The notes below the pieces were generated by a model. The model saw only the letters and a list, made by a program, of their open reading frames with translations. It had not been told where the DNA came from and ran no database searches. Made by a program: the position numbers and the translations under genes. Positions 3,248 through 24,605 of a DNA stretch of 32,000 nt are shown one piece after another. Every line of letters begins with the position of its first letter. Position 1 is the first letter of the stretch. Source of the stretch: Nostoc punctiforme PCC 73102 (GTDB lineage: Bacteria; Cyanobacteriota; Cyanobacteriia; Cyanobacteriales; Nostocaceae); contig NC_010631.1 in the NCBI RefSeq assembly GCF_000020025.1, forward strand, positions 270,001 through 302,000, in the 5' to 3' direction.

Positions 3248-3397
3248 AATATCATCTTGATACTCTGATAAGTGTGATTTGAAACAAAAAATGAGATTTT
3301 AACTCATGATATGCTTCAGAAATGAGTATCCAGTTTATAGTTCACTTTTAATATTCGAGTTTTTTTACTAATAATGATTATCGTATAAGAGATAAAA

Positions 3398-3447
3398 AGC
3401 GACGTTTGTATCAATTCTTCAGAGCGACGTTTGTATCAATTCTTCAG
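3398..3447. repeat. perfect 25-bp tandem duplication (AGCGACGTTTGTATCAATTCTTCAG x2)
   Basis: Read directly: 3398-3422 is identical to 3423-3447. The pair is flanked by an imperfect inverted repeat, AATAATGATTATC (approx. 3371-3383) and GATTATCATTATT (approx. 3451-3463). Confidence 0.9.
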
Positions 3448-3772
3448 CTTGATTATCATTATTATTCAGCTACAATTTGAGTAGGCGATCGCTTAACAAC
3501 AGAGCGATCGCTTGGACAATGAAATATTTGATTTTTACTCAGATATCTACTAAAACAAAAGTTTTGAACCATAATATGGGTATTTGAACCATATTCTGAA
3601 TTGAAAGTTTAAGTTAGAGCAATTTTGTCAGGGATTTTTTGTGCAAGTTTTGTCCACTTGTGTTTTTTCAACTCATTCTCTAGTTATGATTCAGAATTTC
3701 AACTCTCACTCACAATTTGATTCAAAGTTTTAATTTTTGATTAGCGCGAAAGGCTGAATTTTCGTTAACTTT

Positions 3773-3823
3773 TGTCACTTAAAGGATATTGTGGCCGTTT
3801 TTAAAGCATAAAGTGGCCGCAGT
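3773..3823 (+). repeat. Tn7-like terminal inverted repeat, tniQ-proximal end
   Basis: TGTCACTTAAAGGATATTGTGGCCGTTTTTAAAGCATAAAGTGGCCGCAGT. It contains two GTGGCCG sub-repeats 22 bp apart, which are candidate TnsB-binding sites. Confidence 0.9.
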
Positions 3824-3857
3824 AGTAAAACCTTAGAGAAAGGCGAATAAATAAGAT

Positions 3858-5444
3858 TTACTGTGAAAGATCCAGTCTTATCTGCCTTAAAACATCAATT
3901 ACCTCAGCCTGCCACAGCAAAGAGGGATGAGGCATAAATTTTCTGAGATTTTTAGCAGTAGGGGTAATGCCTTGTGCATGAAGTACTGAAGCGAGTTGGC
4001 GTACTTCTCGACAGCCTTGCTCAATAGCTAGTTTATGGACGAATTTGCGGTAATCTTTATAGCGTAAAGAAATAGCATGGCACACAATAGGGCAATAGTG
4101 GTAGAAAGTAGCCAAACCAATACCAGTTCTCTTAGCTATTTTTCTTAGAGAAGGTGGTGGATACTCGTCGCTAAACAAAGCTAATTCAAGTATGTCTCTG
4201 ATGTGTAAAAATCTTAGCTGCTGTTGATATTCACTATATCTAGTAGCCAAAGATGCTGATAAAGATTTTGAGCAAGCAGTTAAACTACTAGGAGTTTTGA
4301 ATCCTAAACGAACAGCTAATTGAGTTAAAGAAGGAGGTGGTTCTTCTTCTTGAGCTAGTTGCATCGCCTGAATAACTCGTTCGCACTTAGGACTACTATT
4401 TGAAGTAACTAAAGCAGACTGTGATGATAATTTTTTCTGTTTAGGAGCAGGTAGAGAAACTAGCTGCTTAAGAGTAAGAGGTAGTATTTTAAGTTGAAGA
4501 AAATCGACAAGATTAGTTGATAAGGCGTAGCAGATTTTCAAAAGTTTATCTAAATTTGGGATGGCTACACCTGAATACCAATGTAGAATTTCATATCTCG
4601 ATAACCCAAGCCAACGACCAAAAGCGGAAACATTACCTTGAGTATATTGATAGACGTAAGCTTCTAGGATTGTTTTAATAGTCTCTCTTGGAGGTGGACA
4701 AGGAAATTCAGGAGCTTGAGCAATTAAATCTCCTAAAGTCTTAACTATCCAAATCTCTTGCTGTAAATTGGGTATCTCCTCGAACAATCTCTTATCTGGC
4801 AAAGATACTTCATAGTTCATCCCCAACCAACCACCACATTTCAGACAAAATCCAGGTCGTGAGTTATGCCACAGGTGTAAAAATTCAAGGTCACAGTGAG
4901 GACATTTTGATTCTAAAAATCGATAATGGATGGGACAAATGTTAGCTGGTTTCAAAGCCCACAGCAGAGGTGAATAAATGACTTGTTGATTATTTAACCA
5001 GTCTTGATAGCAATAAGGACACCAAGCATGAGAATGCTTGAGCAATCCCAAAACTGGGAAGACTTTTGCCCAAGGTAGCATTGTCAAAAACTGTAAGTCA
5101 GTACGTTTTGTCAATATTTCTAGAGCAAAAACCAGTTGTTTAGCTCCAATTTGTGTTCCGTTTAAAGCTTTTACAGAAGCTTGTCCATACAAACTTACGA
5201 TACTTTTAGAATTCAAGGGATTGGTAGTATGGTTATGCCCAACTATTGGTTTTATCTCTCTAGCCAATAAAGTTCCAGGCAATACGCTATGAGCTGCGGC
5301 TAGACGAGCAACATAGCTAGTCAGACTTTCAACATAACAAGTACCAAGTCCAATCGGTTCCAGATGAAACAACCGGCTAGGACTGGGAGTAAATTCTGGG
5401 TCTTTGAGCCACAATTCATCGTTAACCGCCATGTTAGTCATCAT
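3858..5444 (-). CDS. tniQ: TniQ family target-selection protein, long TnsD-like form (528 aa)
   Basis: The N-terminal TniQ domain has LFHLEPIGLGTCYVESLTSYVARLAAAH and Cys/His clusters (CPYC, CPIH, CPHC, CLKCG). The C-terminal half has three HTH-like units, each introduced by PPP(R/S) (PPPRETIKTILEAY, PPPSLTQLAVRLGF, PPPSLRKIAKRTGI). The start overlaps the tnsC stop by 11 nt. Confidence 0.85.
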   Translation of the reverse strand: MMTNMAVNDELWLKDPEFTPSPSRLFHLEPIGLGTCYVESLTSYVARLAAAHSVLPGTLLAREIKPIVGHNHTTNPLNSKSIVSLYGQASVKALNGTQIGAKQLVFALEILTKRTDLQFLTMLPWAKVFPVLGLLKHSHAWCPYCYQDWLNNQQVIYSPLLWALKPANICPIHYRFLESKCPHCDLEFLHLWHNSRPGFCLKCGGWLGMNYEVSLPDKRLFEEIPNLQQEIWIVKTLGDLIAQAPEFPCPPPRETIKTILEAYVYQYTQGNVSAFGRWLGLSRYEILHWYSGVAIPNLDKLLKICYALSTNLVDFLQLKILPLTLKQLVSLPAPKQKKLSSQSALVTSNSSPKCERVIQAMQLAQEEEPPPSLTQLAVRLGFKTPSSLTACSKSLSASLATRYSEYQQQLRFLHIRDILELALFSDEYPPPSLRKIAKRTGIGLATFYHYCPIVCHAISLRYKDYRKFVHKLAIEQGCREVRQLASVLHAQGITPTAKNLRKFMPHPSLLWQAEVIDVLRQIRLDLSQ

Positions 5445-6573
5445 CTGAATTTACCCCTACATCATCTCTTTTAGGTTTTCTTTGTCCAACACGACCTTTT
5501 TTGAGTAGGGAATTTTTGGCTGGCATTTTTATTCCATGTTCTGTTGAATATTGCCGCTCAAAAAAACTGGATTCTTCTTGAAAGCGTTTAAATCCCTGTT
5601 GTGCTTCTTCCTTAATTTTGTTGATACGAGATGCAGAAAAAGCACCTAATTTAAGATGTTTGCTATTAAGAGTCCGAGCTTCTTCAGAATAGGCAACTCT
5701 CAAAGAACGAGTTAACCAATTCTTCAATAGCCCCACACAACCAACTGAGCCAGAAAAAAGATACTCATAGTGTTGTTCTAATTTTGGTTCTTGTACAAGC
5801 GGAATGTGGCGTTGAAAAGTTCTAATTACTCTAATAAATTCAGCAATATCTTCTGGGTTATCAGCTTGGTAAGGTAACAGGTGAATATCTTCGCTACGCC
5901 GCCCTATTTGCCCATTCAAGGTAGGACAGTTAAGCAGTTCATAAGTTCCAAATAAAATATGTACTGTACCAGTAAGATTAGCAATAGACTTAATCCAGTT
6001 CATTTGCTGTAACATCTGGTGTCCGCCTGCCATCATAAATAAATGCTGTGCCTCGTCTACAGTAAAAGCTTTTACCTGACGATAACGAAATGCTTTTTCC
6101 ATTGCTCGGCGTAATGCGGGCGAATCTTGGCGGTAAGCCCGATTTAGCAACCCCAAATCCTTTACCTCACCGTGAGGAATTTCATAATCAATTTTGTATT
6201 CAATCAAAACTTCCTGAAGGGATTCTAGGGCGCGAGTGTAATAATCTTTATAGCTAAACTTTCCTTGTTCTGTTGGAATAGCTTCAATACCAGCAACAGC
6301 AATTTGACCAGGATTTTGGCGTAATGAGGGGAGAAATTCGTAATTTAGCAGATTTTCCAGACGCAAGCGTAAGGTTGTTTTTCCTACACCAGTCACACCA
6401 AAAACTAAAAATACTAAAGTGTCAGCTGGCTCCAGAATATTAATTAATAAAGTATCTAAGGCTTGTTTGAGCCTTTGATGTGGAATAGTGATACTTTTGA
6501 AATAATCAGTTTTAATTTCGTTCGGCTGTAAGAGAAGTTCTTCTGGAAAAGAGTGCGACTGAATTTTTACCAT
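5434..6573 (-). CDS. tnsC: TnsC/TniB-type AAA+ ATPase
   Basis: Walker A is FGVTGVGKTT and Walker B is FTVDEAQHL. The gene lies between the transposase and tniQ, and its start overlaps the tnsB stop by 7 nt. Confidence 0.85.
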   Translation of the reverse strand: MVKIQSHSFPEELLLQPNEIKTDYFKSITIPHQRLKQALDTLLINILEPADTLVFLVFGVTGVGKTTLRLRLENLLNYEFLPSLRQNPGQIAVAGIEAIPTEQGKFSYKDYYTRALESLQEVLIEYKIDYEIPHGEVKDLGLLNRAYRQDSPALRRAMEKAFRYRQVKAFTVDEAQHLFMMAGGHQMLQQMNWIKSIANLTGTVHILFGTYELLNCPTLNGQIGRRSEDIHLLPYQADNPEDIAEFIRVIRTFQRHIPLVQEPKLEQHYEYLFSGSVGCVGLLKNWLTRSLRVAYSEEARTLNSKHLKLGAFSASRINKIKEEAQQGFKRFQEESSFFERQYSTEHGIKMPAKNSLLKKGRVGQRKPKRDDVGVNSDDD

Positions 6574-9176
6574 AGCTCCTCTGTATTGTAAGCTTCTATT
6601 TTGGTTAAATCTATTAATTTTTTTGCTGATGATTTTGGCTTTTTAATGCTTTCTGAACCTGCCAAAATATTTTTATCTACATCTTGAACATTAGCTGAAT
6701 AATTGTGTTTACTTAATTTACTTTCAATAACTGAGCTTTTTTCAATTAAAACCCAAATATCTTGTTGTGCTAAATCATGTAAGCGTTGTAATAACAAAGT
6801 TTCTTGGGCTTCAGTTCCTTCTAAATATGTAGCTTTTTCTTGGGCAGATAGAGTAATTCTTTGAGCGTGTTTCTGCCTTTTTCGACGTAATTGTGTGCTG
6901 GCTATGTTCACTTCTTTTTCGGAACGATTTTGGAAGGATTTGTAATGTTCAGAAATACAGCGTATCCAACGTCCCTTAACGTAAGCATAAGCAGTCCCCA
7001 TATCAAAAGGGTCGTAACGAATAGGTACATTAGTTCCTTCAATTTCTGGTCTTATGAACGAATCATCAATTGACCAATAGTAGAGATAATTAATTTTCAC
7101 GCCTCTACTTGGTTGAACTTTTGCAGTTCCTTTAGGTGTAGAAGGTAAGGTAAAAATCTTAAAATTATCATCATAAATAATCTGTTTCTGAGGGCGATAA
7201 CCACTTGAATTTAGCCCTGACATAAAAGTTTGACGTGGGCTTTGTCCTAATGTTGGATGTTCTCTGCAATCATAGAATTCGTAACAATATGAACAAAAGT
7301 TTTCGTAGAGTTGATCTAGTGTCCAAACAGCTTGATTTTTGGGATTATTTGATTTCGTGACTTGGCGGACATTCTTAGTAATTTGAGTGTTGCCTCTAAG
7401 ATTATAAAAAAACTCTGTATTTGTAGTTCCAAAAATACGTTCAATAATTGAACCAAATCTGGCTTTCGCAGCTGGTCGCTGCTTTTTGGTACATTCAAAA
7501 GCCGCTAACAAGGTCTCAAAGTATGTACTACTAAATTCTGTCCCACCGTCAACAACTATTGTCTCTGGTAATTTCTCAAATCGCTGTACGCAGATTCTTA
7601 ATACCATCATGCAACTACGGTAGCTTGGCTCGTCAAAAGTTAGGTAAACTGCGAGAATACGTCGGCTGTAAGCATCGATTAACAGAGTTGCCCAAGGTCT
7701 ACCAAGAAGATAACCTGTTCGGGAGCATACTAACTCAATATCCAGTTGCGTATGGTCAATGTGTGCTATCTCAAATGGACGGTCGCCATGACATGGTGTG
7801 GTTAATTTCAACTCCCAATACAATAAAGATTGTTGATAAGCTGCTCTGTTTCCCTTACGTTTTTTTGTTTGCCTATAACCAGAACGATGTTGAATTCTAG
7901 AACAAAATGTAGCGTAGCTAGGCAGCTTATCTGTTAGACCTGCTTTCTCCCATTCTCTTGCTAGAATTCCATAAACAGCTAGTTTGCTTCTTTGTTGAAA
8001 AGTTTCATAATATTCTTCAATTATTTTGTCAATGAAATCTTGAGACGATTGAGAAATTCTGGGTAAGCGATTGCCTCTAGCATTAGAGTTATTTAGCAGC
8101 CCAATATAACCACATTTGTACGCCTTTTGTGCTGCTATAAACTTAGCCTTCCATCTGCGAATAGTACGTTGTGGAACAGTTTCTTTATCTCTATAACTGT
8201 CATTAAGATAAGGTTCAATTACTTCATATCTTCGGTTAGCTTCTGCCAAGTCTTCAGGACTAGCTCTCAAAAAACGCTCCATTGCTTTTGGAGACATTTT
8301 TACTTGATTATGAGTTTTAGGTTCCAGTTGATTGGGTTTAACATCTAAAATATTCAGAATCGTTCCATTATTCGGTTGCGATTTTATCATTTGTACATAA
8401 GCTACCGCGATTTCTTGGTCACGGAAAAGCTGTACTTTTTCTGGCTCTGCTAAGGGTGCGGCACTCAAATTAATGTAAATTTTTTTTGTAGCTATTAAAG
8501 CATTTATGTCATCAGGATTGCTCTGTTGAGTATGAATCATTTCCCAATAACTTATGCCCGGATTTAAGCTAATTAACTTCACCAAATTTTCAGCTATTTC
8601 TGGGTCAATTTGGTAATCTTCAGTAGTATAGGCTTTGAGAAATAGTCGATTTCTGTATTTAATCCAATCAATTTCTGTATCTAACCGAATTCGGTAATAC
8701 AGTCCTAATTTTTCTGCATAAGCAACTGCTGGCAGGTTTAACCACTGCCCATCTTCTGAACGCATATAACGTTGTGATTGTTTAGCTGCTAATTTTTCTA
8801 ATCTTGATTCTGGTTTCCACTCTTCAAAACCTGCACTCCGCTTCCGAATTACGAAAAAGTCTGGTATATGCGAAGCTTTGATTATTTCCCCACTGCTTGA
8901 GGGGAATTCTAGAGTAATTTGATATGCTTGGTCGTAGTATTCGAGTACATCTGCGTCTTCTTCGTACTCCTCTACACCTGGCAATTCAATTTTATGGGAC
9001 TCAAATTGAATAGTTTTTCCCATTTTGCGACTGGCGTAGTCGCCCCGGACATTTATACCACTGCTTTTGACTCGCCGAATTGGTTCAGAGGCACGGATTT
9101 GGGAAATTAATTGCCTAGCCTCTTGTGGTAAATTTACGCCGCGACACCAATCATTAAACTCTTGGTCGCTCAACAT
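6567..9176 (-). CDS. tnsB: TnsB (Mu/retroviral-type DDE transposase) with an N-terminal TnsA-like endonuclease module (869 aa from the ATG)
   Basis: DDE triad candidates are AHIDHTQLD, TIVVDGGTEF and IIERIFGTTNTEF. A Mu-transposase C-terminal motif is present (VKINYLYYWS...VPIRYDPFDMGTAYAYVKGRWIRC). The N-terminal approx. 130 aa carry PD-(D/E)xK-like motifs resembling TnsA: FESHKIE, DADVLEYYDQ, HIPDFFV and FEEWKP. The ATG at 9176 is preferred over the GTG at 9218 used by the ORF track. Confidence 0.85.
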   Translation of the reverse strand: MLSDQEFNDWCRGVNLPQEARQLISQIRASEPIRRVKSSGINVRGDYASRKMGKTIQFESHKIELPGVEEYEEDADVLEYYDQAYQITLEFPSSSGEIIKASHIPDFFVIRKRSAGFEEWKPESRLEKLAAKQSQRYMRSEDGQWLNLPAVAYAEKLGLYYRIRLDTEIDWIKYRNRLFLKAYTTEDYQIDPEIAENLVKLISLNPGISYWEMIHTQQSNPDDINALIATKKIYINLSAAPLAEPEKVQLFRDQEIAVAYVQMIKSQPNNGTILNILDVKPNQLEPKTHNQVKMSPKAMERFLRASPEDLAEANRRYEVIEPYLNDSYRDKETVPQRTIRRWKAKFIAAQKAYKCGYIGLLNNSNARGNRLPRISQSSQDFIDKIIEEYYETFQQRSKLAVYGILAREWEKAGLTDKLPSYATFCSRIQHRSGYRQTKKRKGNRAAYQQSLLYWELKLTTPCHGDRPFEIAHIDHTQLDIELVCSRTGYLLGRPWATLLIDAYSRRILAVYLTFDEPSYRSCMMVLRICVQRFEKLPETIVVDGGTEFSSTYFETLLAAFECTKKQRPAAKARFGSIIERIFGTTNTEFFYNLRGNTQITKNVRQVTKSNNPKNQAVWTLDQLYENFCSYCYEFYDCREHPTLGQSPRQTFMSGLNSSGYRPQKQIIYDDNFKIFTLPSTPKGTAKVQPSRGVKINYLYYWSIDDSFIRPEIEGTNVPIRYDPFDMGTAYAYVKGRWIRCISEHYKSFQNRSEKEVNIASTQLRRKRQKHAQRITLSAQEKATYLEGTEAQETLLLQRLHDLAQQDIWVLIEKSSVIESKLSKHNYSANVQDVDKNILAGSESIKKPKSSAKKLIDLTKIEAYNTEELW

Positions 9177-9286
9177 ATTGGCCCCCAAGCTTTTAAAGCC
9201 GCAACAAGCTCTTACCACAAATCTAGGCTTTCGCCAGTTAAACAGTCTTTTATTGATATAAATATTTATACTTACCAGTTCAGATG

Positions 9287-9337
9287 ACTGCGGCCACTTT
9301 ATGGTTTAAAAACGGCCACAATATCCTTTAAGTGACA
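9287..9337 (-). repeat. Tn7-like terminal inverted repeat, tnsB-proximal end
   Basis: The reverse complement is TGTCACTTAAAGGATATTGTGGCCGTTTTTAAACCATAAAGTGGCCGCAGT, with one mismatch to the other end. Confidence 0.9.
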
Positions 9338-9352
9338 ACTTTTTTCTAATTT

Positions 9353-9559
9353 ATGGATCAAAATTTTTCTCACATTATGATTCAAAGCATACTTAATCCT
9401 TTGCCGCGTAAACGCTGGGAGCAAACTTCAGCCTGGACAATTGACGCAGTACTCAATGGCAAAATGTTAACTTATGAAAGAGCGAGTCTACTAACAGCAG
9501 CACGGGTAATTCCACAAGAGAATATGATTAAGACATGGCAAATGTACACTCACTTATAA
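9353..9559 (+). CDS. hypothetical 68-aa ORF beside the transposon end
   Basis: ATG-started ORF beginning 15 bp from the transposon end and overlapping the next gene by 25 nt. No motif recognised, and it may not be coding. Confidence 0.3.
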   Translation: MDQNFSHIMIQSILNPLPRKRWEQTSAWTIDAVLNGKMLTYERASLLTAARVIPQENMIKTWQMYTHL

Positions 9560-11193
9560 ACCAGCCCAATAAAAGAGACGATTTAACAGCTCGCCGCATT
9601 CGATTTTTTGAAGGACGCTACGGAACTAATGCGCTCTTATTGGCTTGTCATGCTGCTTTTCCCCTTACCCTCACTTCAGATTTACTCTACTGTTTGCGTG
9701 AGAATTTTGTTCTTGATGCCCCTTGGTATGCAGTCGCTGATGTGTTGTTATCAGGGTTATGCCAACCTGTAGGATATGACCTTTATGAAATGGAAGGTGA
9801 AACTAGAGATGGCTTGCTGAGTCGTTTATGTGAGCATTTTGGAGAACAGCGACTTAAGGAACTGGCGAATTTTATGTCTGCGTATATTACCTGTCGCTTG
9901 CAGGTTGAGAATAATGACCGTGCTTTGGTATTTGGACAACGCCCAGACTGGACAGCATTAGCATACTTGAGTTCAGATAAGCAAGAGGTAATTAACGCCA
10001 TAACGCAGGAGTTGCGAAGATTGACAGCTTCCACAGATGCTAAAGAGCGTATCAGATGGGCAGCTTTAATAGAAAATTATGCTGACCTATTATCACAAAA
10101 AGGTTTTGAGCCATTGTTGTTGGAATTGTCACAGCAAGCACTCAATGGCGAACCCATACAGGATGAAGAGGAGAAAGAAATTGCCGCAGCAACGGGAGTT
10201 TCGTTGCAAACTTTTGAATTTGACGTGACAACTATCATCTTAGACGATGAGCCAGGGGAAGAATTGCAAACTTTTGAGTTTGACACCGTAACAGTAGATG
10301 CTCGTGGAAAAGTAATTAACAAAGAACGAAAGCAAGCATTTTATTTTATTGAGTTTTTGGGTGAAGCAGCAGGAAAGCCATCAAAACTCTTGATAGAGAT
10401 GGTAGCTATTCCTGGAGGAACTTTTGAAATGGGGTCGCCACCAGATGAGCCAGAACGTTATGATGATGAGAATCCCCAGTATAGAGTCACTGTGCAGCCG
10501 TTTTTCTTGGCTAAGTATCCAGTCACTCAAGCGCAGTGGCAATTTGTGGCGCAGTTACCCCAGGTAAATCGGGAGCTAGATCGAGATCCATCTGATTTTA
10601 AAGGTGCAAACCGACCTGTCGAAAATGTCTCTTGGTACGATGCGGTTGAATTTTGCGATCGCTTATCTCAGTATACAGGTAGACCATACACCCTCCCTAG
10701 TGAAGCAGAATGGGAATATGCGTGTAGAGCCGGAACAACAACTCCATTCCATTTTGGCGAAACGATAACGTCAGATTTAGCTAACTATGATGCTAGGAGT
10801 AGATTTGACGGCAGTGAAGGACTTTTTGATGATATGCAAGGCAACTTTGATGATGGATCGAAAGGAATTTATCGAAAAGAAACAACAGTTGTAGGCAGCT
10901 TCAAAGTTGCAAACGCCTTTGGATTATACGATATGCACGGAAACGTATTGGAATGGTGTTTTGATGATTGGCACAGCAACTATGAAGGTGCGCCGATAGA
11001 TGGCGGTGCTTGGTTTGATGATAATGATAATATTTACCAAAAACGAGGAGCAGCCGTTCTGCGGGGCGGTTCCTGGATCGGCAATCCTGATTTCTGCCGT
11101 TCCGCATCCCGCGACAGCGGCAGCACGCGCGACTACCACTTCAACTATTTTGGTTTTCGTGTTATGTGCGGAGTTGGGAGAATTCTTCAGTAG
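9535..11193 (+). CDS. two-part protein: N-terminal helical domain of unknown function plus C-terminal FGE-sulfatase (SUMF1/C-type-lectin fold) domain
   Basis: The C-terminal approx. 260 aa have FGE-sulfatase hallmarks: IPGGTFEMGSP, RVTVQPFFLAKYPVTQAQW, PVENVSWYDAVEFCDRLS, YTLPSEAEWEYACRAGT, NAFGLYDMHGNVLEWC, LRGGSW and GFRV. This is preceded by a duplicated LQTFEFD linker that I recall from cyanobacterial members of the family. Confidence 0.85.
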   Translation: MANVHSLINQPNKRDDLTARRIRFFEGRYGTNALLLACHAAFPLTLTSDLLYCLRENFVLDAPWYAVADVLLSGLCQPVGYDLYEMEGETRDGLLSRLCEHFGEQRLKELANFMSAYITCRLQVENNDRALVFGQRPDWTALAYLSSDKQEVINAITQELRRLTASTDAKERIRWAALIENYADLLSQKGFEPLLLELSQQALNGEPIQDEEEKEIAAATGVSLQTFEFDVTTIILDDEPGEELQTFEFDTVTVDARGKVINKERKQAFYFIEFLGEAAGKPSKLLIEMVAIPGGTFEMGSPPDEPERYDDENPQYRVTVQPFFLAKYPVTQAQWQFVAQLPQVNRELDRDPSDFKGANRPVENVSWYDAVEFCDRLSQYTGRPYTLPSEAEWEYACRAGTTTPFHFGETITSDLANYDARSRFDGSEGLFDDMQGNFDDGSKGIYRKETTVVGSFKVANAFGLYDMHGNVLEWCFDDWHSNYEGAPIDGGAWFDDNDNIYQKRGAAVLRGGSWIGNPDFCRSASRDSGSTRDYHFNYFGFRVMCGVGRILQ

Positions 11194-11335: not shown

Positions 11336-12187
11336 ATGGTAAAAATACTCACTAAACGACAAACAGCGCAATGTTTTATCGAAGACTTGGGCAATGGAAT
11401 TAAACTAGAGATGGTGCTGCTGCAACGTGGTAGTTTTCTAATGGGCGCTCCAGAAACAGAAGAAGGAAGCAGTGATGATGAACGTCCTCAGCACGAAGTA
11501 ACTGTTCCAACTTTTTTTATAGGCAAGTATCCACTCACTCAAGCACAGTGGAAAGCAGTAGCAGCACTACCACAGGTTAACAAAGAGCTAAAAGCTAAAC
11601 CATCGCGTTTTAAAGGCGCAGATCGCCCTGTTGAGCAAGTTTCTTGGGAGGATGCGGTTGAATTTTGCGATCGCCTGACTGCCCATACTAAAAGACAATA
11701 CCGCCTGCCTAGCGAAGCCGAATGGGAATATGCCTGTCGTGCTGGAACTACTAGCCCATTTCACTTTGGCGAAACAATTACGACCGATTTAGCTAATTAC
11801 CAAGGTACAGATAACAAAGAATATGAATGGTCGGGTTCTTATGGACGAGGGCCAAAAGGTATCTATCGACAAGAGACTACGCCTGTGGGCAGTTTTGGGG
11901 TAGCTAACGCCTTTGGATTATACGATATGCACGGAAACGTATGGGAATGGTGTCTCGACAATTGGCACGACAACTATGAAGGTGCGCCTATAGATGGCAG
12001 TGCTTGGCTTAATGATAATAATAACTTTTCTCAAAAAAAAGAAAATGCTGTGCTGCGGGGCGGTTCCTGGCTCGGCTATCCTTATGACTGCCGGTCTGCG
12101 TCCCGTGACTACTATTGGGCGGGGCGCGACATCATTCTCTACACTATTGGTTTTCGTGTTGTGTGCGCTGTCGGCAGGATTCTTTAG
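11336..12187 (+). CDS. stand-alone FGE-sulfatase (SUMF1/C-type-lectin fold) domain protein
   Basis: Same motif series as the upstream gene: FLMGAPE, YPLTQAQW, PVEQVSWEDAVEFCDRL, YRLPSEAEWEYACRAGT, NAFGLYDMHGNVWEWC, LRGGSW and GFRVVC. It is clearly a paralog of the 9535-11193 C-terminal domain. Confidence 0.85.
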   Translation: MVKILTKRQTAQCFIEDLGNGIKLEMVLLQRGSFLMGAPETEEGSSDDERPQHEVTVPTFFIGKYPLTQAQWKAVAALPQVNKELKAKPSRFKGADRPVEQVSWEDAVEFCDRLTAHTKRQYRLPSEAEWEYACRAGTTSPFHFGETITTDLANYQGTDNKEYEWSGSYGRGPKGIYRQETTPVGSFGVANAFGLYDMHGNVWEWCLDNWHDNYEGAPIDGSAWLNDNNNFSQKKENAVLRGGSWLGYPYDCRSASRDYYWAGRDIILYTIGFRVVCAVGRIL

Positions 12188-13665
12188 TCGCCACGAATTG
12201 GTAATTGCGAATTGGAGATGACACTGCTTATAAGTGGGGATGGGAGCGAGTCGCAGATTATGCCATCAACACAAGCAATTCCCCACTGCGGAAACTTCGC
12301 TAATAGTTTTTTGATCACGATCTGTAAGGTCGGATCATCATTCCAGCATTTTTGGAGGAAGTCAAAGCCCGGATTTTCCCCAACCAGAGAAGCCATCTTC
12401 AGTTTCTCCATTCGCAATAGTCTAGTCTTGGATCTCATGGCGATGTCTTCAGAGCTAAACAACGCCTCACTAGATTTTTGCACCTGATAATTGACTACAG
12501 ATATATTCCACTGTTTCTCAAACTTGCTGATTGTTGCCCTCATACTGGCGTAATACTTGCTGTCTAGCAAATATTGAATTACCCACAATGGGGGGCATTC
12601 TCCTGCATCTGCTCGATCTAACCATTCAAATATCTCACTTTGAGTTAATGACACCGGCGCGGCGGAACAAGTGCCTTCATGACAGTCCCTCGCCTCAACA
12701 CCACAATCTTGGTTTTCAACTAACAACGGAGCGGAATTACTTTGTTCTGCTTGCCTCTGTGTTTGATTAGCGATCACAGAATTTAAAGATTTTTCATTTT
12801 GGGCGACGGGCGCGGCGGAACAAGTACCTTCATGAGGGGATATCGCTTCAACACCACAATCCTGGCTTTCTCCTATCGACAAAGCAGATTCACCCTGTAC
12901 AGCATCCACAAGCGTCAGTGATGTACAATCCATTGCCGTAGGCAATTCTTCAAGTTCTGACGCGCTTTCGATACGTTGAGGCGACGCGCCCCCCAAGGGC
13001 GCATGAGCCGTTTCTTCAACACGCGGATTTTCAGTTGGCGCGTCAGAACCAACTACCATACCAACAACCTTAGTTGGTTGTTGGTAGGTAGTTAACGGGT
13101 AGTTAGAAACGTTGTTAGGATTTTGGAACCCTTGCAAATCCTCACTTTTTTGACCATTCTTTTGGAATGATTCCAAATCAGACTGAATTTGTTCCACGCC
13201 AGGGTAATTTTCATTCCGTCCGGGCGCATTTGTTTCCTCCCCGGCGTGGACGGCTTTCTCGTCACAAAAATTGGTTTCCTCAGACGTGGATGATTCCCAG
13301 TAAAAACGATTGTAATAACCGCGCAAGTTACGGACACGGTAGCTAATCAATCCTGGTCTACCAGAAGGTAAGCGACCAAATACTTCCTCAAATTGAAACA
13401 ATCCTTGAGCGCTTAACGCCGCCCCTGCTTTTTGCAAAGATTTGTAGGTGAGGTTAGTATCGAGTTTATGAGCAGAACCCCCGAATTGTTCAGCCGCCAC
13501 GCTATCCAACCAAAGCTGCTGCACAGATGGAGGCTGTTGACGAACCCAGTTGATATCCTCAATCGATACCTTGCAATGTGGTCTAATCGATTTATCTGCT
13601 TCAGCAAGTTTCCGCTCGTTTCGTTGTTGGCTACCACCGTTGATTGCTTTTAACGCTGTAGTCAT
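12184..13665 (-). CDS. multi-domain protein: N-terminal wHTH/Rep-like region, two HEGTCSAAPV repeat units, C-terminal KFPQWGI module (493 aa)
   Basis: The ATG at 13665 is preceded by AGGAGG and is preferred over the track start at 13704. An internal 51-aa repeat is present (CGVEAISPHEGTCSAAPV / CGVEARDCHEGTCSAAPV). The C-terminal module is shared with 489-998 and 2002-2272. The Rep-like assignment is inferred only from context and a basic N-terminus. Confidence 0.7.
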   Translation of the reverse strand: MTTALKAINGGSQQRNERKLAEADKSIRPHCKVSIEDINWVRQQPPSVQQLWLDSVAAEQFGGSAHKLDTNLTYKSLQKAGAALSAQGLFQFEEVFGRLPSGRPGLISYRVRNLRGYYNRFYWESSTSEETNFCDEKAVHAGEETNAPGRNENYPGVEQIQSDLESFQKNGQKSEDLQGFQNPNNVSNYPLTTYQQPTKVVGMVVGSDAPTENPRVEETAHAPLGGASPQRIESASELEELPTAMDCTSLTLVDAVQGESALSIGESQDCGVEAISPHEGTCSAAPVAQNEKSLNSVIANQTQRQAEQSNSAPLLVENQDCGVEARDCHEGTCSAAPVSLTQSEIFEWLDRADAGECPPLWVIQYLLDSKYYASMRATISKFEKQWNISVVNYQVQKSSEALFSSEDIAMRSKTRLLRMEKLKMASLVGENPGFDFLQKCWNDDPTLQIVIKKLLAKFPQWGIACVDGIICDSLPSPLISSVISNSQLPIRGD

Positions 13666-13756
13666 ATTTCCTCCTAAATTTTTCCATGACAATGTGAGCG
13701 GCATGGTTGCAATGCCACGTTTAAGTTTTTTGGCTCTTCTCTTAGCGAGTCTTTAT

Positions 13757-17963: not shown

Positions 17964-18224
17964 ATGAAATTCACAACTGTCTCTGTTAGTTACTCTAGAA
18001 AATTCAATCTCGGCGACTATGAATTTCTAGAACTGGGTTGTTCTCTCTGGGCACAAGTCGAAGATGGAGAAGATGCTGATGGAATAACCCAATTCCTCTA
18101 TCATCAAGCCAAAGCTTCAGTAAAGCAAGCAGCAATACCTGTGCTAAAAGCCTCAGAGTTTCAAATTAATAAGGCTAAATCTAGCAAAAAAGTATCTGGT
18201 GATATTAGCGAAAGTGATTGGTAA
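17964..18224 (+). CDS. hypothetical protein (86 aa) immediately upstream of erf
   Basis: ATG ORF tightly packed in the operon. No family recognised. Confidence 0.55.
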   Translation: MKFTTVSVSYSRKFNLGDYEFLELGCSLWAQVEDGEDADGITQFLYHQAKASVKQAAIPVLKASEFQINKAKSSKKVSGDISESDW

Positions 18225-18238
18225 AGAGGAGCCGGACA

Positions 18239-19012
18239 ATGCAAGAATTAATCAAAGCTTTAATTAAAGCAAAGTCAGAGTTTAATCCCATTCAAAAAGA
18301 CGGTACTAATCCTCACTACAAGCGCAAATATGCAACACTAGATGCTGTATTAGATGCTGTCACTCCTGCGCTTGGTAAACATGGATTAGTGATAATTCAA
18401 ACTACTGAAATCTTTGAAGGTAAAACCGTGCTGCGGACTCATATTTTTCATGAATCTGGAGAGAGTATCACCAGCACTTATCCTTTACCTGAAGTTGCTG
18501 ACTCTCAGAAGTTTGGTGCAGCATTAACTTATGCACGACGATATGCAGTTTGTGCAATTTTATCGGTGACGGCAGATGAAGACAATGATGCTGAAGATGC
18601 AACTACTCCTCAAAAGCCTGAACAGCCACAGAATAACATTAGACCCCGCAAAGACAATCAACAGCCAAGAGTTCAGGCACCAAAACAAGCTGTAACTCCA
18701 CCATCAATCAGCCCAAAAGATTTGCGAGTCAAAGAAATTCGCACACTTTTAAATTATCCGTTGGATTTAGTCAAAGAGTGGTTGCATTCTCGAAATGTTA
18801 CGAGTCCAAGTGAGCTTGATTCTCTTCAAATTGATGAACTAGTGAAGACTATGTGTTTGGCTTGGGCTGGTAATAAGTTTGGACATTTGAATCATGCTGT
18901 TAACTCTTATCAGAAACACGTCGTCGACGCTGTGGCACGAGGTGTAGATGAAACAAGAGCAATCAACGACTGGATGGAAGGAGCGCTTGCACAATTGCCT
19001 GAACTGAATTGA
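18239..19012 (+). CDS. erf: ERF-family single-strand annealing recombinase
   Basis: NPHYKRKYATLDAVLDAVTPALGKHGLVIIQ and FGAALTYARRYAVCAILSV match the conserved ERF (essential recombination function) blocks. A low-complexity P/Q linker precedes the C-terminal tail. GAGGAG lies 7 nt upstream of the ATG at 18239 (the track started at the TTG at 18218). Confidence 0.8.
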   Translation: MQELIKALIKAKSEFNPIQKDGTNPHYKRKYATLDAVLDAVTPALGKHGLVIIQTTEIFEGKTVLRTHIFHESGESITSTYPLPEVADSQKFGAALTYARRYAVCAILSVTADEDNDAEDATTPQKPEQPQNNIRPRKDNQQPRVQAPKQAVTPPSISPKDLRVKEIRTLLNYPLDLVKEWLHSRNVTSPSELDSLQIDELVKTMCLAWAGNKFGHLNHAVNSYQKHVVDAVARGVDETRAINDWMEGALAQLPELN

Positions 19013-23149: not shown

Positions 23150-24605
23150 GTCAATACCGTTGCCAATTTACGAGGGTTCAACACCTGTGGAAAGGGGATG
23201 AATACGTCCCAAAGAAGTGAGCTTGGCAAAAATTTGGGCTAGTAAAATAGGCTCAGGCTTTTGAGGAAGTATTTTTAACATTTCATGAACATATCGAAAA
23301 CCACGGTAATAAGCTTTCAGGTCAATAATGCCAGAACCAGGATTATGTTTACGGAAATCAGCTAGAAGATGATGGGATAAATTGACCATAAAGAATGCAA
23401 TATTAGCAGCATTAGTCACAGCAGTTTGGCTCAGATTCATAAAATCTTCCAAGCCCCAGAATTGCTTGGCATCCCGAAAATTAAACTCGATTTGGAAACG
23501 AAGCTTGTAATAGTCAATAATTCTGTCAGCCGTCAAATCTAAGTCGCTGGAAAATAAAATTACATGGCTACGTATATTGGCTTTAAGATTAGTTTTGACT
23601 AAAATAACTACATTGAGAGACTGAGCAAATTCTTTGTGAAGAAGAGTAGCTTGATAAATATCAGTTTGAATTCCATCTTCAATATCACTTTTACACAAAT
23701 ATTTCTCAGGTAGATTACGGTAGTCTAGTTTTTCCCCGTATTTACGACGAGAACGTTTATTCGAGTCAGGATTTTCATAAGGGATGTATAATGCTGAATC
23801 ATGGCGCAGCTTGGAAATTATGTGCAAGTTAACTTGTCGTACCATCTGCAAGGCATTGTTGTTACCAAAATGACCATCTACTACCAAGTATGTCAAGGGG
23901 ATAAAGTTAGCTACTAGCTCAAATAGTGAGTTAATCATCTTTTTAATTAACAAGAGTTCAGATGTTAATATCACTTCGGTTTTGTTTTTATTCTTACTGC
24001 CTTTCGGTCGTCCCCGTCCACGTTTCTCTTTAGCTTTTACTTTTTTGATTGGCAAGGTGTTATTTATTTGGGCATCACTTTTAATTACCTGTTCTATTCC
24101 AATCGGAAATGATTGCCTTCCTTCTACGCTTACTAATGACAATACGAAGAAAGATAAACCATTAATTGGTTTACTAGCCAGGCTAGAAAAAAATCTATCT
24201 ACTCCGTAAGTTTGCTTCCCCGATTTACTAACTACAACTTCATCTCCTGCAAGCAAATACACATCATTTTTTCGCCACAAATGTTGACGAAAAAACAGCC
24301 AAAACAATGTTGCCCAAGGTATTACTGTAGAAAAAAATCTCCCCATTGTCCGATAGCTACCGCCATCACCTGCCCAACGGGCAATTCCCAACATCGTGAC
24401 TCGACCACTTAGAGCTAACATTGCCAGGATAATTTGGTTCAATTGCCGCATCGTTGTCGCGTTTATCTGCGGTAGCAGGCATTGCAGGAGTGATAAGATA
24501 TCGGGCATGGGTTGATTGTGGCTTTTGAGTTGTCGTTTGGGAAGACAATAACTCTACTACATCAGCCCTCTCTCTTCACCCTCTGATTTTGGCTAAGGTA
24601 TTGAC
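23150..24605 (-). mobile_element. IS4/IS701-like insertion sequence (1456 bp)
   Basis: A single DDE transposase ORF is bracketed by imperfect terminal inverted repeats: GTCAATACCGTTGCCAATTTACGAGGGT (23150-) versus the reverse complement of the 24605 end, GTCAATACCTTAGCCAAAATCAGAGGGT. No clear target duplication was seen. Confidence 0.7.
23168..24508 (-). CDS. IS4-superfamily (IS701/IS4-like) DDE transposase (446 aa)
   Basis: The N-terminus (LLPQINATTMRQLNQIILAMLALSGRVTMLGIARW) and blocks such as YLLAGDEVVVSKSGK, LVVDGHFGNN and YKLRFQIEFNFRDAKQ are typical of cyanobacterial IS4/IS701-type transposases. Confidence 0.75.
   Translation of the reverse strand: MPDILSLLQCLLPQINATTMRQLNQIILAMLALSGRVTMLGIARWAGDGGSYRTMGRFFSTVIPWATLFWLFFRQHLWRKNDVYLLAGDEVVVSKSGKQTYGVDRFFSSLASKPINGLSFFVLSLVSVEGRQSFPIGIEQVIKSDAQINNTLPIKKVKAKEKRGRGRPKGSKNKNKTEVILTSELLLIKKMINSLFELVANFIPLTYLVVDGHFGNNNALQMVRQVNLHIISKLRHDSALYIPYENPDSNKRSRRKYGEKLDYRNLPEKYLCKSDIEDGIQTDIYQATLLHKEFAQSLNVVILVKTNLKANIRSHVILFSSDLDLTADRIIDYYKLRFQIEFNFRDAKQFWGLEDFMNLSQTAVTNAANIAFFMVNLSHHLLADFRKHNPGSGIIDLKAYYRGFRYVHEMLKILPQKPEPILLAQIFAKLTSLGRIHPLSTGVEPS

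Follow-up and report, generated by a model that had tools for sequence, protein, structure and literature searches.

A predicted single-chain TnsA-TnsB transposase in a cargo-less Tn7-like element of Nostoc punctiforme PCC 73102

Can one polypeptide of Nostoc punctiforme PCC 73102 combine both nucleases of a Tn7-like transposon? The question is raised by a stretch of 32,000 nucleotides (NCBI RefSeq assembly GCF_000020025.1, contig NC_010631.1, positions 270,001 to 302,000; hereafter the window, to which all coordinates refer), in which a single open reading frame (ORF), tnsAB (6567..9176, minus strand), encodes a transposase of 869 amino acids (aa). A preliminary description of the window had proposed, from a series of motifs near the start of this protein, that a TnsA-like endonuclease is fused there to the N-terminus of TnsB. 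The best explanation of the data presented here, with a probability of about 0.85, is that tnsAB encodes a single-chain TnsA-TnsB transposase in a Tn7-like transposon that is complete, lacks cargo and belongs to the cyanobacterial TnsAB clade, and whose movement we infer to be cut-and-paste. That residues 1-268 form a TnsA module is nearly certain.

The TnsA module

Residues 1-295, scanned alone, matched PF08722 (TnsA-like endonuclease N-terminal) at residues 74-163 (E = 7.8e-7, 30.0 bits; curated gathering cut-off 26.5 bits). With residues 1-268 as the query, 216 relatives were retrieved, almost all containing PF08722, and for several close homologues the name given at the source is 'heteromeric transposase endonuclease subunit TnsA'. 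Among 65 aligned relatives, PF08722 was found in 64/65 and PF08721, the C-terminal domain of TnsA, in 23/65; the latter was not found in the window protein itself in the Pfam scan of residues 1-295.

An AlphaFold2 model of residues 1-290, built from the alignment of 65 relatives, had a mean predicted local distance difference test score (pLDDT) of 91.3 and a predicted template modelling score (pTM) of 0.83. It is ordered to about residue 270, with an alpha/beta domain followed by a helical domain. A Foldseek search of the PDB returned exactly three significant matches (E <= 0.001): chain M of 9bw1 (E = 4.5e-28, template modelling (TM) score 0.81), a solved fusion protein considered below, and the two Tn7 TnsA entries 1t0f_A (E = 1.3e-6) and 1f1z_A (E = 4e-6), both with a probability of 1.00. 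The alignments to Tn7 TnsA show a sequence identity of 15-17% and span 276-291 columns; therefore both TnsA domains are covered. Below the threshold, the matches were MarR/SlyA winged-helix proteins, as expected for the C-terminal domain of TnsA. By sequence, phmmer aligned the module to 9bw1 over residues 3-268 (E = 1e-67). The preliminary description had proposed a profile search of the N-terminus and a comparison of its predicted structure with Tn7 TnsA; the former recovered PF08722 above its cut-off, and the latter a fold match, 1t0f and 1f1z being among the three significant hits.

On these grounds (AlphaFold2, Foldseek and phmmer) the module is placed at 8373..9176 on the minus strand. 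It begins with N-terminal helices, continues with a PD-(D/E)xK nuclease domain (~residues 45-165, 8682..9044; from PF08722, conservation, hhalign and the secondary structure of the model) and ends in a helical or winged-helix domain (~residues 171-266, 8379..8666; from the model and Foldseek). The range originally given for it, 8600-9176, lies inside the module but takes in residues 1-192 only, the module reaching to about residue 268 (window 8373). The helical region that had been suggested to follow the nuclease as the TnsA C-terminal domain is present in the model, and the MarR/SlyA tail of the Foldseek search agrees with it. As for the start of the protein, the ATG at 9176 (869 aa) is likely, because homologues begin MLSDQEF, MLSKEDF or MLTDQQF; an alternative GTG at 9218 would give 883 aa (ORF 6567..9218, minus strand).

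The four motifs on which the fusion had been proposed were all found in the translation of 6567..9176: FESHKIE (aa 58-64, 8985-9005), DADVLEYYDQ (aa 74-83, 8928-8957), HIPDFFV (aa 103-109, 8850-8870) and FEEWKP (aa 117-122, 8811-8828), all on the minus strand. When the family profile was aligned with Tn7 TnsA using hhalign, E64, D106 and K121 were paired with E63, D114 and K132 of Tn7, and E119 fell at the position of Q130; the alignment is weak (E = 0.005, probability 7%) and was used for residue correspondence only, with the Tn7 TnsA query checked against 1F1Z (272/273 residues agreed, one was corrected). The corresponding codons are 8985-8987 (E64), 8859-8861 (D106), 8820-8822 (E119) and 8814-8816 (K121), on the minus strand. 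In the model, E64 starts a helix (64-73), D106 lies just before a strand (107-111) and E119-x-K121 lies on a strand (115-121). As modelled, E64, D106 and E119-x-K121 sit where a PD-(D/E)xK fold puts its catalytic residues. The motif FESHKIE, which had been likened to the surroundings of Tn7 E63, does hold the equivalent residue; this is most likely E64, the last glutamate, rather than E59, given the hhalign pairing and the position at the start of helix 64-73.

Conservation of these residues is high. In the 65-sequence alignment D106, E119 and E59 do not vary; 64/65 sequences retain E64, and 64/65 retain K121. Among 86 sequences of >=800 aa from distinct 50%-identity clusters, E64 and D106 are each kept in 85/86, and E119 and K121 each in 86/86. 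The E/D/K positions originally singled out are thus invariant or nearly so among homologues, in a region where a PD-(D/E)xK fold was found.

Several results pull the other way. The PF08722 score is only 3.5 bits over the cut-off, and a Pfam hmmscan with the full-length 869-aa protein returned rve and Mu-transpos_C only, PF08722 being absent even at E <= 1. The TM-scores to Tn7 TnsA are low (0.37-0.41), the family profile reached 9BW1 only, and not Tn7 TnsA, among the PDB sequences, and the E value of the hhalign alignment came with a probability of just 7%. Moreover, a TnsA model was not found in an NCBIfam scan, and the precomputed annotation of the collection lists PF08722 as a 'weak' match on the identical 869-aa product. 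The full-length Pfam, NCBIfam and family-profile results could be read as showing some other PD-(D/E)xK nuclease, or a chance resemblance of motifs, on a Mu/TnsB-like transposase. This is very improbable: PF08722 passes its cut-off in the isolated N-terminus as in all but one of the aligned homologues, close homologues are named as TnsA by their sources, significant Foldseek matches are limited to the fusion protein 9bw1 (PmcCAST TnsAB) and two Tn7 TnsA entries, and cognate TnsC and TnsD are encoded alongside. Since the full-length scan misses PF08722 whilst the isolated N-terminus passes, routine annotation of such fusions can overlook the TnsA part.

The TnsB part follows in the same ORF, as had been described. 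It comprises residues 288-869 (6570..8315, minus strand), with a DNA-binding region, a DDE core (Pfam rve, aa 489-563), a Mu-transposase C-terminal domain (Mu-transpos_C, aa 681-738) and a C-terminal tail, and it matches the TnsB chains 9y7b, 7svw, 8rdu and 7pik in the PDB sequences. Between the two parts, a segment of ~46 residues (WDGK...GETEV...GKITSL) is found in 9bw1 and in two related loci (L007 and L010; loci from our searches are denoted by L numbers). It is lacking in a sub-clade formed by the window and L001, L003 and L004; its site in the window is at ~8316-8372 (TnsAB residues ~269-287).

Clade, element and mode of transposition

Searched against the PDB sequences with phmmer, the full product matched chain M of 9bw1 ('Integrase', 898 aa) with an E value of 2.1e-270. 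Residues 5-268 align with residues 3-268 of that chain and residues 288-818 with residues 335-861, and the two proteins are ~55-60% identical. A preprint using this PDB entry identifies 9BW1 as the TnsABC(D) transpososome of the CRISPR-associated transposon (CAST) PmcCAST, and the abstract of a meeting contribution by Wang et al. assigns the same structure to a Tn7-like transposon of the Peltigera membranacea cyanobiont 210A. PmcCAST (type I-B2) and McCAST are members of a cyanobacterial "TnsAB" clade (Hsieh & Peters 2022, PMC9881144), which includes the type I-B2 and I-D CASTs, many tRNA-targeting elements, the cargo-less Tn5469 (with one TniQ) and Tn5541. Fusions of tnsA and tnsB are treated as a recognised feature in an Annual Review article (PMC11406308) and by Faure et al. 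2023 (PMC10293859).

The features of this clade were found again at the window locus. TnsA and TnsB form one polypeptide in the window and in L001, L003, L004, L007, L010 and L190; the window protein has full-length homology to PmcCAST TnsAB; genes for TnsC and a TniQ/TnsD selector are adjacent; the ends are TGT/ACA with repeated sites and a 5-bp target-site duplication (TSD), ACTTT; and the hosts are cyanobacteria, near-identical copies being present in Nostoc sp. TH1S01, Nostoc sp. ChiQUE01b, Nostoc punctiforme NIES-2108 and Nostoc sp. C057. By sequence comparison, therefore, the window TnsAB is a new member of a described and structurally solved cyanobacterial clade, in which the fusion itself is ordinary. 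The statement that natural TnsA-TnsB fusions are reported only sporadically does not hold, as the whole cyanobacterial clade carries the fusion (PMC9881144; PMC11406308) and, of the best 150 representatives of 50%-identity clusters that the N-terminal module matched, 85 have a length of >=800 aa, the TnsA match being at residues 1-265. Since the TnsA module is present, the element does stand apart from the Tn5053 and type V-K lineages, which have no TnsA, as had been proposed. The fusion as such adds one member to a documented clade that has been solved and used in CAST engineering, and so changes little.

Could the fusion be an artefact, in which tnsA and tnsB are really two genes, run together through an error of sequencing or assembly or through a frameshift that arose recently in the window copy only? 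Split genes do occur in related copies (L176, 235 + 633 aa; L005, 400 + 500 aa; and L187 of Tolypothrix), and many database matches are short. Against this, independent genomes (L001, L003, L004, L007, L010 and L179-L181) have the same ORF without interruption, at 863-906 aa. The ORF is also unbroken on plasmid A of Trichormus variabilis (905 aa) and in the purified and solved PmcCAST protein, and the 85 long representatives counted above have the TnsA module in the same place. An artefact is thus the least probable of the alternatives considered here, and the split copies are best read as decayed.

The element as a whole occupies 3773..9337 (5,565 bp). It is cargo-less, and its only genes are tnsAB, tnsC and tnsD. 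The tnsC gene (5434..6573, minus strand) overlaps tnsAB by 7 nt and encodes a 379-aa AAA+ regulator (AAA_22 and TniB), which matches the PmcCAST TnsC chains (8fcu_Q and 9bw1, E = 2.6e-90). The C-terminal tail of the protein carries RKPKRD (aa 365-370), which fits an RxxxRD motif reported in the PmcCAST TnsC tail to stabilise the TnsA-TnsB interaction (PMC13598128). The sole target selector is a tnsD-like tniQ of 528 aa (3858..5444, minus strand; PF06527 TniQ, E = 1.4e-15), with matches to PmcCAST TnsD (8v32_J and 9bw1, E = 1.1e-79) and PmcCAST TniQ (8fcu_P, E = 4e-45).

The element is bounded by TGT...ACA within terminal inverted repeats of 51 bp, found by an inverted-repeat search, one proximal to tniQ (3773..3823, plus strand) and one proximal to tnsAB (9287..9337, minus strand), which agree at 50/51 positions. 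In the tniQ-proximal repeat the TGT is followed by two 19-bp repeats resembling TnsAB sites at a spacing of 22 bp. Each end has exactly two 19-bp repeats and no third site, and the ends are therefore nearly symmetric. The TSD ACTTT flanks the element at 3768..3772 and 9338..9342, and homology to L001-L004 and L009 ends exactly at the tips of the inverted repeats. No Rfam match and no CRISPR-like array were found in the window, nor any cas genes in the element. The element is thus not a CAST, as there is no CRISPR-like array, cas gene or second, Cascade-coupling TniQ in a three-gene element. No tRNA gene was found in the 32-kb window; its absence nearby, and the insertion of the element inside another Tn7-like mini-element, indicate that the attachment site is not a tRNA.

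Copies of the element with the same three genes and 78-98% identity were found in Nostoc sp. TH1S01, Nostoc sp. ChiQUE01b, Rhizonema sp. PD38 and a Nostocaceae metagenome-assembled genome (MAG), among others. The exact TnsC was present in 46 blocks of the Logan assembly collection (L175-L183), always on contigs of ~5.4-5.6 kb which break at the tips of the element, and this is the signature of a multi-copy repeat. It indicates that the element is multi-copy and recently active. The flanks of L001 look like mutual inverted copies on a 5.8-kb MAG contig of a repeated element and were treated as unreliable.

Reduced and damaged copies were also observed. A metagenome contig (L017, 3614-3806) carries a mini-derivative of 193 bp, composed of the two ends only, which has a perfect TSD (ACCAG) and occupies the same position in its host end, and a second one (L036, 7961-8173; 213 bp) is likewise two ends only but degenerate. 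A scan of metagenome and viral sequences with the end pattern TGTNACTTAAAGGATA (15 specified bases) returned at least 120 stretches, nearly all of them due to chance, with about 7 real loci among the matches listed. On plasmid p057_G of Nostoc sp. C057 (L184, 117586-131884) a copy of 99% identity is cut short by an IS5 element, the truncation falling within tnsC. The copy is situated 148 bp upstream of where the decayed TnsA-N gene of yet another Tn7-like element starts, near TGTCCATTTTCTTCTTCC-type repeats.

How would such an element move? On the Tn7 paradigm and the PmcCAST structure, TnsD would mark (bind) the target, and TnsC would assemble there and recruit TnsAB. The TnsB part would then cut and join the 3′ ends whilst the fused TnsA part would cut the 5′ ends, so that the element would excise and insert by cut-and-paste, leaving a 5-bp duplication. 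By analogy with McCAST, for which TnsAB gave 0/150 cointegrates as the wild type and 149/150 as a D106A mutant (PMC9881144), active cut-and-paste by the window TnsAB is probable, at a confidence clearly below that given to the module itself.

This part of the interpretation also has evidence against it. The closest relative with a solved structure, PmcCAST, has been described as prone to cointegrates although its TnsA domain is intact (PMC9881144; PMC13598128), and the inter-domain segment of ~46 residues present in PmcCAST is absent from the window sub-clade. A simple insertion with a TSD is equally left by a resolved cointegrate and is not diagnostic of cut-and-paste, and the multi-copy state in many assemblies is compatible with replicative spread, although it does not require it. 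The TnsA module might accordingly be folded but poorly coupled or silent, with movement mainly replicative, through cointegrates resolved by host recombination. In favour of such a scheme, PmcCAST reportedly forms cointegrates about as often as the V-K systems, which have no TnsA (PMC9881144), and the description 'intrinsically prone to cointegrate formation' has been applied to I-B2 CASTs (PMC13598128). We consider it unlikely, if far from negligible. Of 86 long representatives, 85-86 retain each of E64, D106, E119 and K121, which implies selection for catalysis; McCAST, of the same clade, shows the dependence on D106 given above; and the PmcCAST data were obtained in a heterologous host. Moreover, the gene list of the 5,565-bp element contains no resolvase. 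Cut-and-paste remains our preferred reading. A compact 5.6-kb system of TnsAB, TnsC and a single TnsD, with two-site ends and non-autonomous derivatives, could be a simple model for single-chain heteromeric transposases.

Insertion within the ends of other Tn7-like elements

The preliminary description had taken the element for a clean simple insertion, and this was borne out by the 51-bp inverted repeats, the TSD and the reconstructed empty site. With the element and one TSD copy removed, the site matches unbroken sequence on 33 plasmid records of Nostocales; 26 of these cover >=80% of the query at 82-97% identity. The uninterrupted copies carry one ACTCT or ACTTT at the insertion position. 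A precise simple insertion is thereby proven.

The target is itself a mobile element. Without the 5.5-kb element the window aligns over ~550 bp, at 88-92% identity, with L185, L186, L187 and L189. The aligned unit, which we call X, spans 3273..3772 plus 9343..9391 (~550 bp). Its left and inner part, delimited by alignment to the plasmid copies (3273..3767, plus strand), starts TGTGATTTGAA, and the terminal 49 bp of its right end (9343..9391, plus strand) end TTCAAAGCATA and contain two TTTGAAYCATAnnGTGAC-type repeats on the minus strand. Copies of X on plasmids of Fremyella/Microchaete, Nostoc sp. C052, Tolypothrix PCC 7601 and Nostoc sp. HK-01 likewise start TGTGATTTGAA and end TTCAAAGCATA. 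The termini of these four are TGT...ATA, and the sites that they occupy are unrelated, each with a perfect 5-bp TSD (TTGAG, CGTAC, CTGAT and AATGT). The right end of X is also found directly upstream of a 905-aa TnsAB gene on plasmid A of Trichormus variabilis ATCC 29413, the product of which is 43% identical to the window TnsAB, and upstream of a split tnsA/tnsB pair in Tolypothrix. Because of the TSD-flanked copies and the same end beside tnsAB genes, X is taken to be a non-autonomous mini-element of a different TnsAB family. The repeats flanking the insertion had also been considered as plasmid iterons or parS, one copy lying beside a par operon; this was rejected on the strength of the four TGT...ATA copies with perfect 5-bp TSDs and of the ends next to tnsAB.

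The window copy of X differs in two respects. Unlike the four plasmid copies it has no TSD (ATAAG at 3268-3272 versus CTTAA at 9392-9396), which hints at rearrangement or at recombination between X copies, and it contains a perfect 25-bp tandem duplication (AGCGACGTTTGTATCAATTCTTCAG twice, 3398-3447) that is single in other X copies.

The element lies 49 bp (54 bp including the TSD) inside the right terminus of X, just inside its two terminal repeats. A similar arrangement recurs at seven more loci (L175, L003, L004, L009, L002, L017 and L039): 52-54 nt beyond the tip of a member of the element family there is a Tn7-like end that begins T(G/A)T and has two repeats. This pattern suggests that the family inserts site-specifically, immediately within the terminal repeats that heterologous Tn7-like elements carry at their ends. 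The eight junctions look like independent insertions at a homologous position, since the host ends are strongly diverged, the TSDs vary between loci yet agree within a locus, and both orientations occur. Matching TSDs were found at the window (ACTTT), L003 (ACTGC) and L017 (ACCAG); L004 has no matching duplication at its flanks, and the remaining junctions have one flank only. A single ancestral nested insertion inherited by all loci was considered and discarded in view of the differing TSDs and orientation and the divergence of the host ends.

In five loci (L003, L004, L009, L002 and L175) it is the tniQ-proximal end that is turned towards the host terminus, whereas in the window it is the tnsAB-proximal end. 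The near-symmetric two-site ends may allow only loose control of orientation, and the opposite orientation in the window could reflect such weak control or an inversion by recombination between the 51-bp repeats.

Taken together, these junctions point to a TnsD-bearing, cargo-less family that may home to a fixed position 49-54 bp inside the termini of other TnsAB-family elements, a 'transposon-end hunter'; we put this forward tentatively, at slightly less than even odds. No similarity was found between the C-terminal half of TnsD and the end-binding region of TnsAB. If the proposal is correct, other mobile elements, often plasmid-borne mini-elements, would serve as safe and mobile landing sites, and the hunting of ends would be the opposite of the target immunity normally imposed by Tn7-like ends. 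If directed by TnsD, it would be a new kind of attachment site, with transposons parasitising transposons on cyanobacterial plasmids. No description of end-targeting by TnsD proteins was found in the literature searched, which is not proof of novelty. It is this nested, position-specific insertion into the end of another element, rather than the fusion, in itself of low interest, that is worth following.

Other genes of the window were also noted. An ERF-family single-strand annealing protein (18218-19012, plus strand) and a DDE_5/IS4-like transposase (23168-24508, minus strand) were observed, and together with the plasmid-borne relatives of X they suggest a plasmid or mobile-island context in the Nostoc genome. 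Two adjacent FGE-sulfatase (SUMF1-like) genes lie at 9535-11193 and 11336-12187 (both plus strand), the first with an N-terminal extension of ~280 aa. Two ORFs without a Pfam match (489-998 and 12184-13704, both minus strand) are paralogues that share a conserved C-terminal region (NPGF..LQ..W.D...LQIVIKKLL.KFPQWGIA.VDG) and a repeated 'HEGTCSAAPV' motif.

Comparison with known systems

In sequence the nearest system is PmcCAST (Tn7744; type I-B2, Peltigera membranacea cyanobiont 210A), compared through the structures 9BW1, 8V32 and 8FCU. Homology is near full-length for TnsAB (E = 2e-270), TnsC (E = 2.6e-90) and TnsD (E = 1e-79), and both systems have the fused TnsA-TnsB and the RxxxRD motif in the TnsC tail. 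Unlike PmcCAST, the window element has no cas genes, CRISPR array, second TniQ or cargo; its TnsAB lacks the ~46-aa segment between the TnsA and TnsB parts, and its TnsD is longer (528 versus 462 aa). McCAST (Tn7575, type I-D) belongs to the same TnsAB clade, and its catalytic aspartate is also numbered D106 (PMC9881144). By description, however, McCAST has a type I-D Cascade, two TniQ-family proteins, cargo and a tRNA-gene target, and its ends are TAC/GTA where those of the window element are TGT/ACA.

Tn7 itself, represented by the TnsA structures 1F1Z and 1T0F, shares the two-domain TnsA fold and the catalytic E/D/K arrangement, the pairing of a nuclease for the 5′ ends with a DDE enzyme for the 3′ ends, the 5-bp TSD and the TGT/ACA ends. 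It differs in that its TnsA and TnsB are separate polypeptides and that Q130 occurs where the window family has E119. Moreover, the ends of Tn7 are asymmetric, with 3 and 4 TnsB sites, in contrast to the two sites per end within the near-perfect 51-bp inverted repeat of the window element.

Tn5469 of Fremyella diplosiphon is ~4.9 kb long and has a small TniQ (~272 aa), whereas the window element measures 5,565 bp and has a TnsD-like selector of 528 aa. A 5-bp duplication was reportedly noted for Tn5469-type elements by Kahn and Schaefer in 1995. Tn5469 has a single TniQ and no cargo, and the window element likewise consists of TnsAB, TnsC and one TniQ. By description, Tn5469 and Tn5541 are cargo-less, cyanobacterial and Tn7-like, and have a fused TnsAB along with TnsC (PMC9881144; PMC11406308). 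Tn5469 is described as apparently untargeted, whereas the window element shows a strong site preference.

With Tn5053 and Tn402 (the 'res hunters') and the type V-K CASTs, the window element shares an operon of transposase, AAA+ regulator and TniQ, and Tn5053 exemplifies the TniQ-dependent targeting of a feature found on other mobile elements (PMC11406308). Those systems are without TnsA and transpose replicatively, and Tn5053 has a resolvase, whereas in the window element a TnsA module is present and a resolvase is not. Of all these systems, Tn5469 resembles the window element most in lifestyle, and the core of PmcCAST most in sequence.

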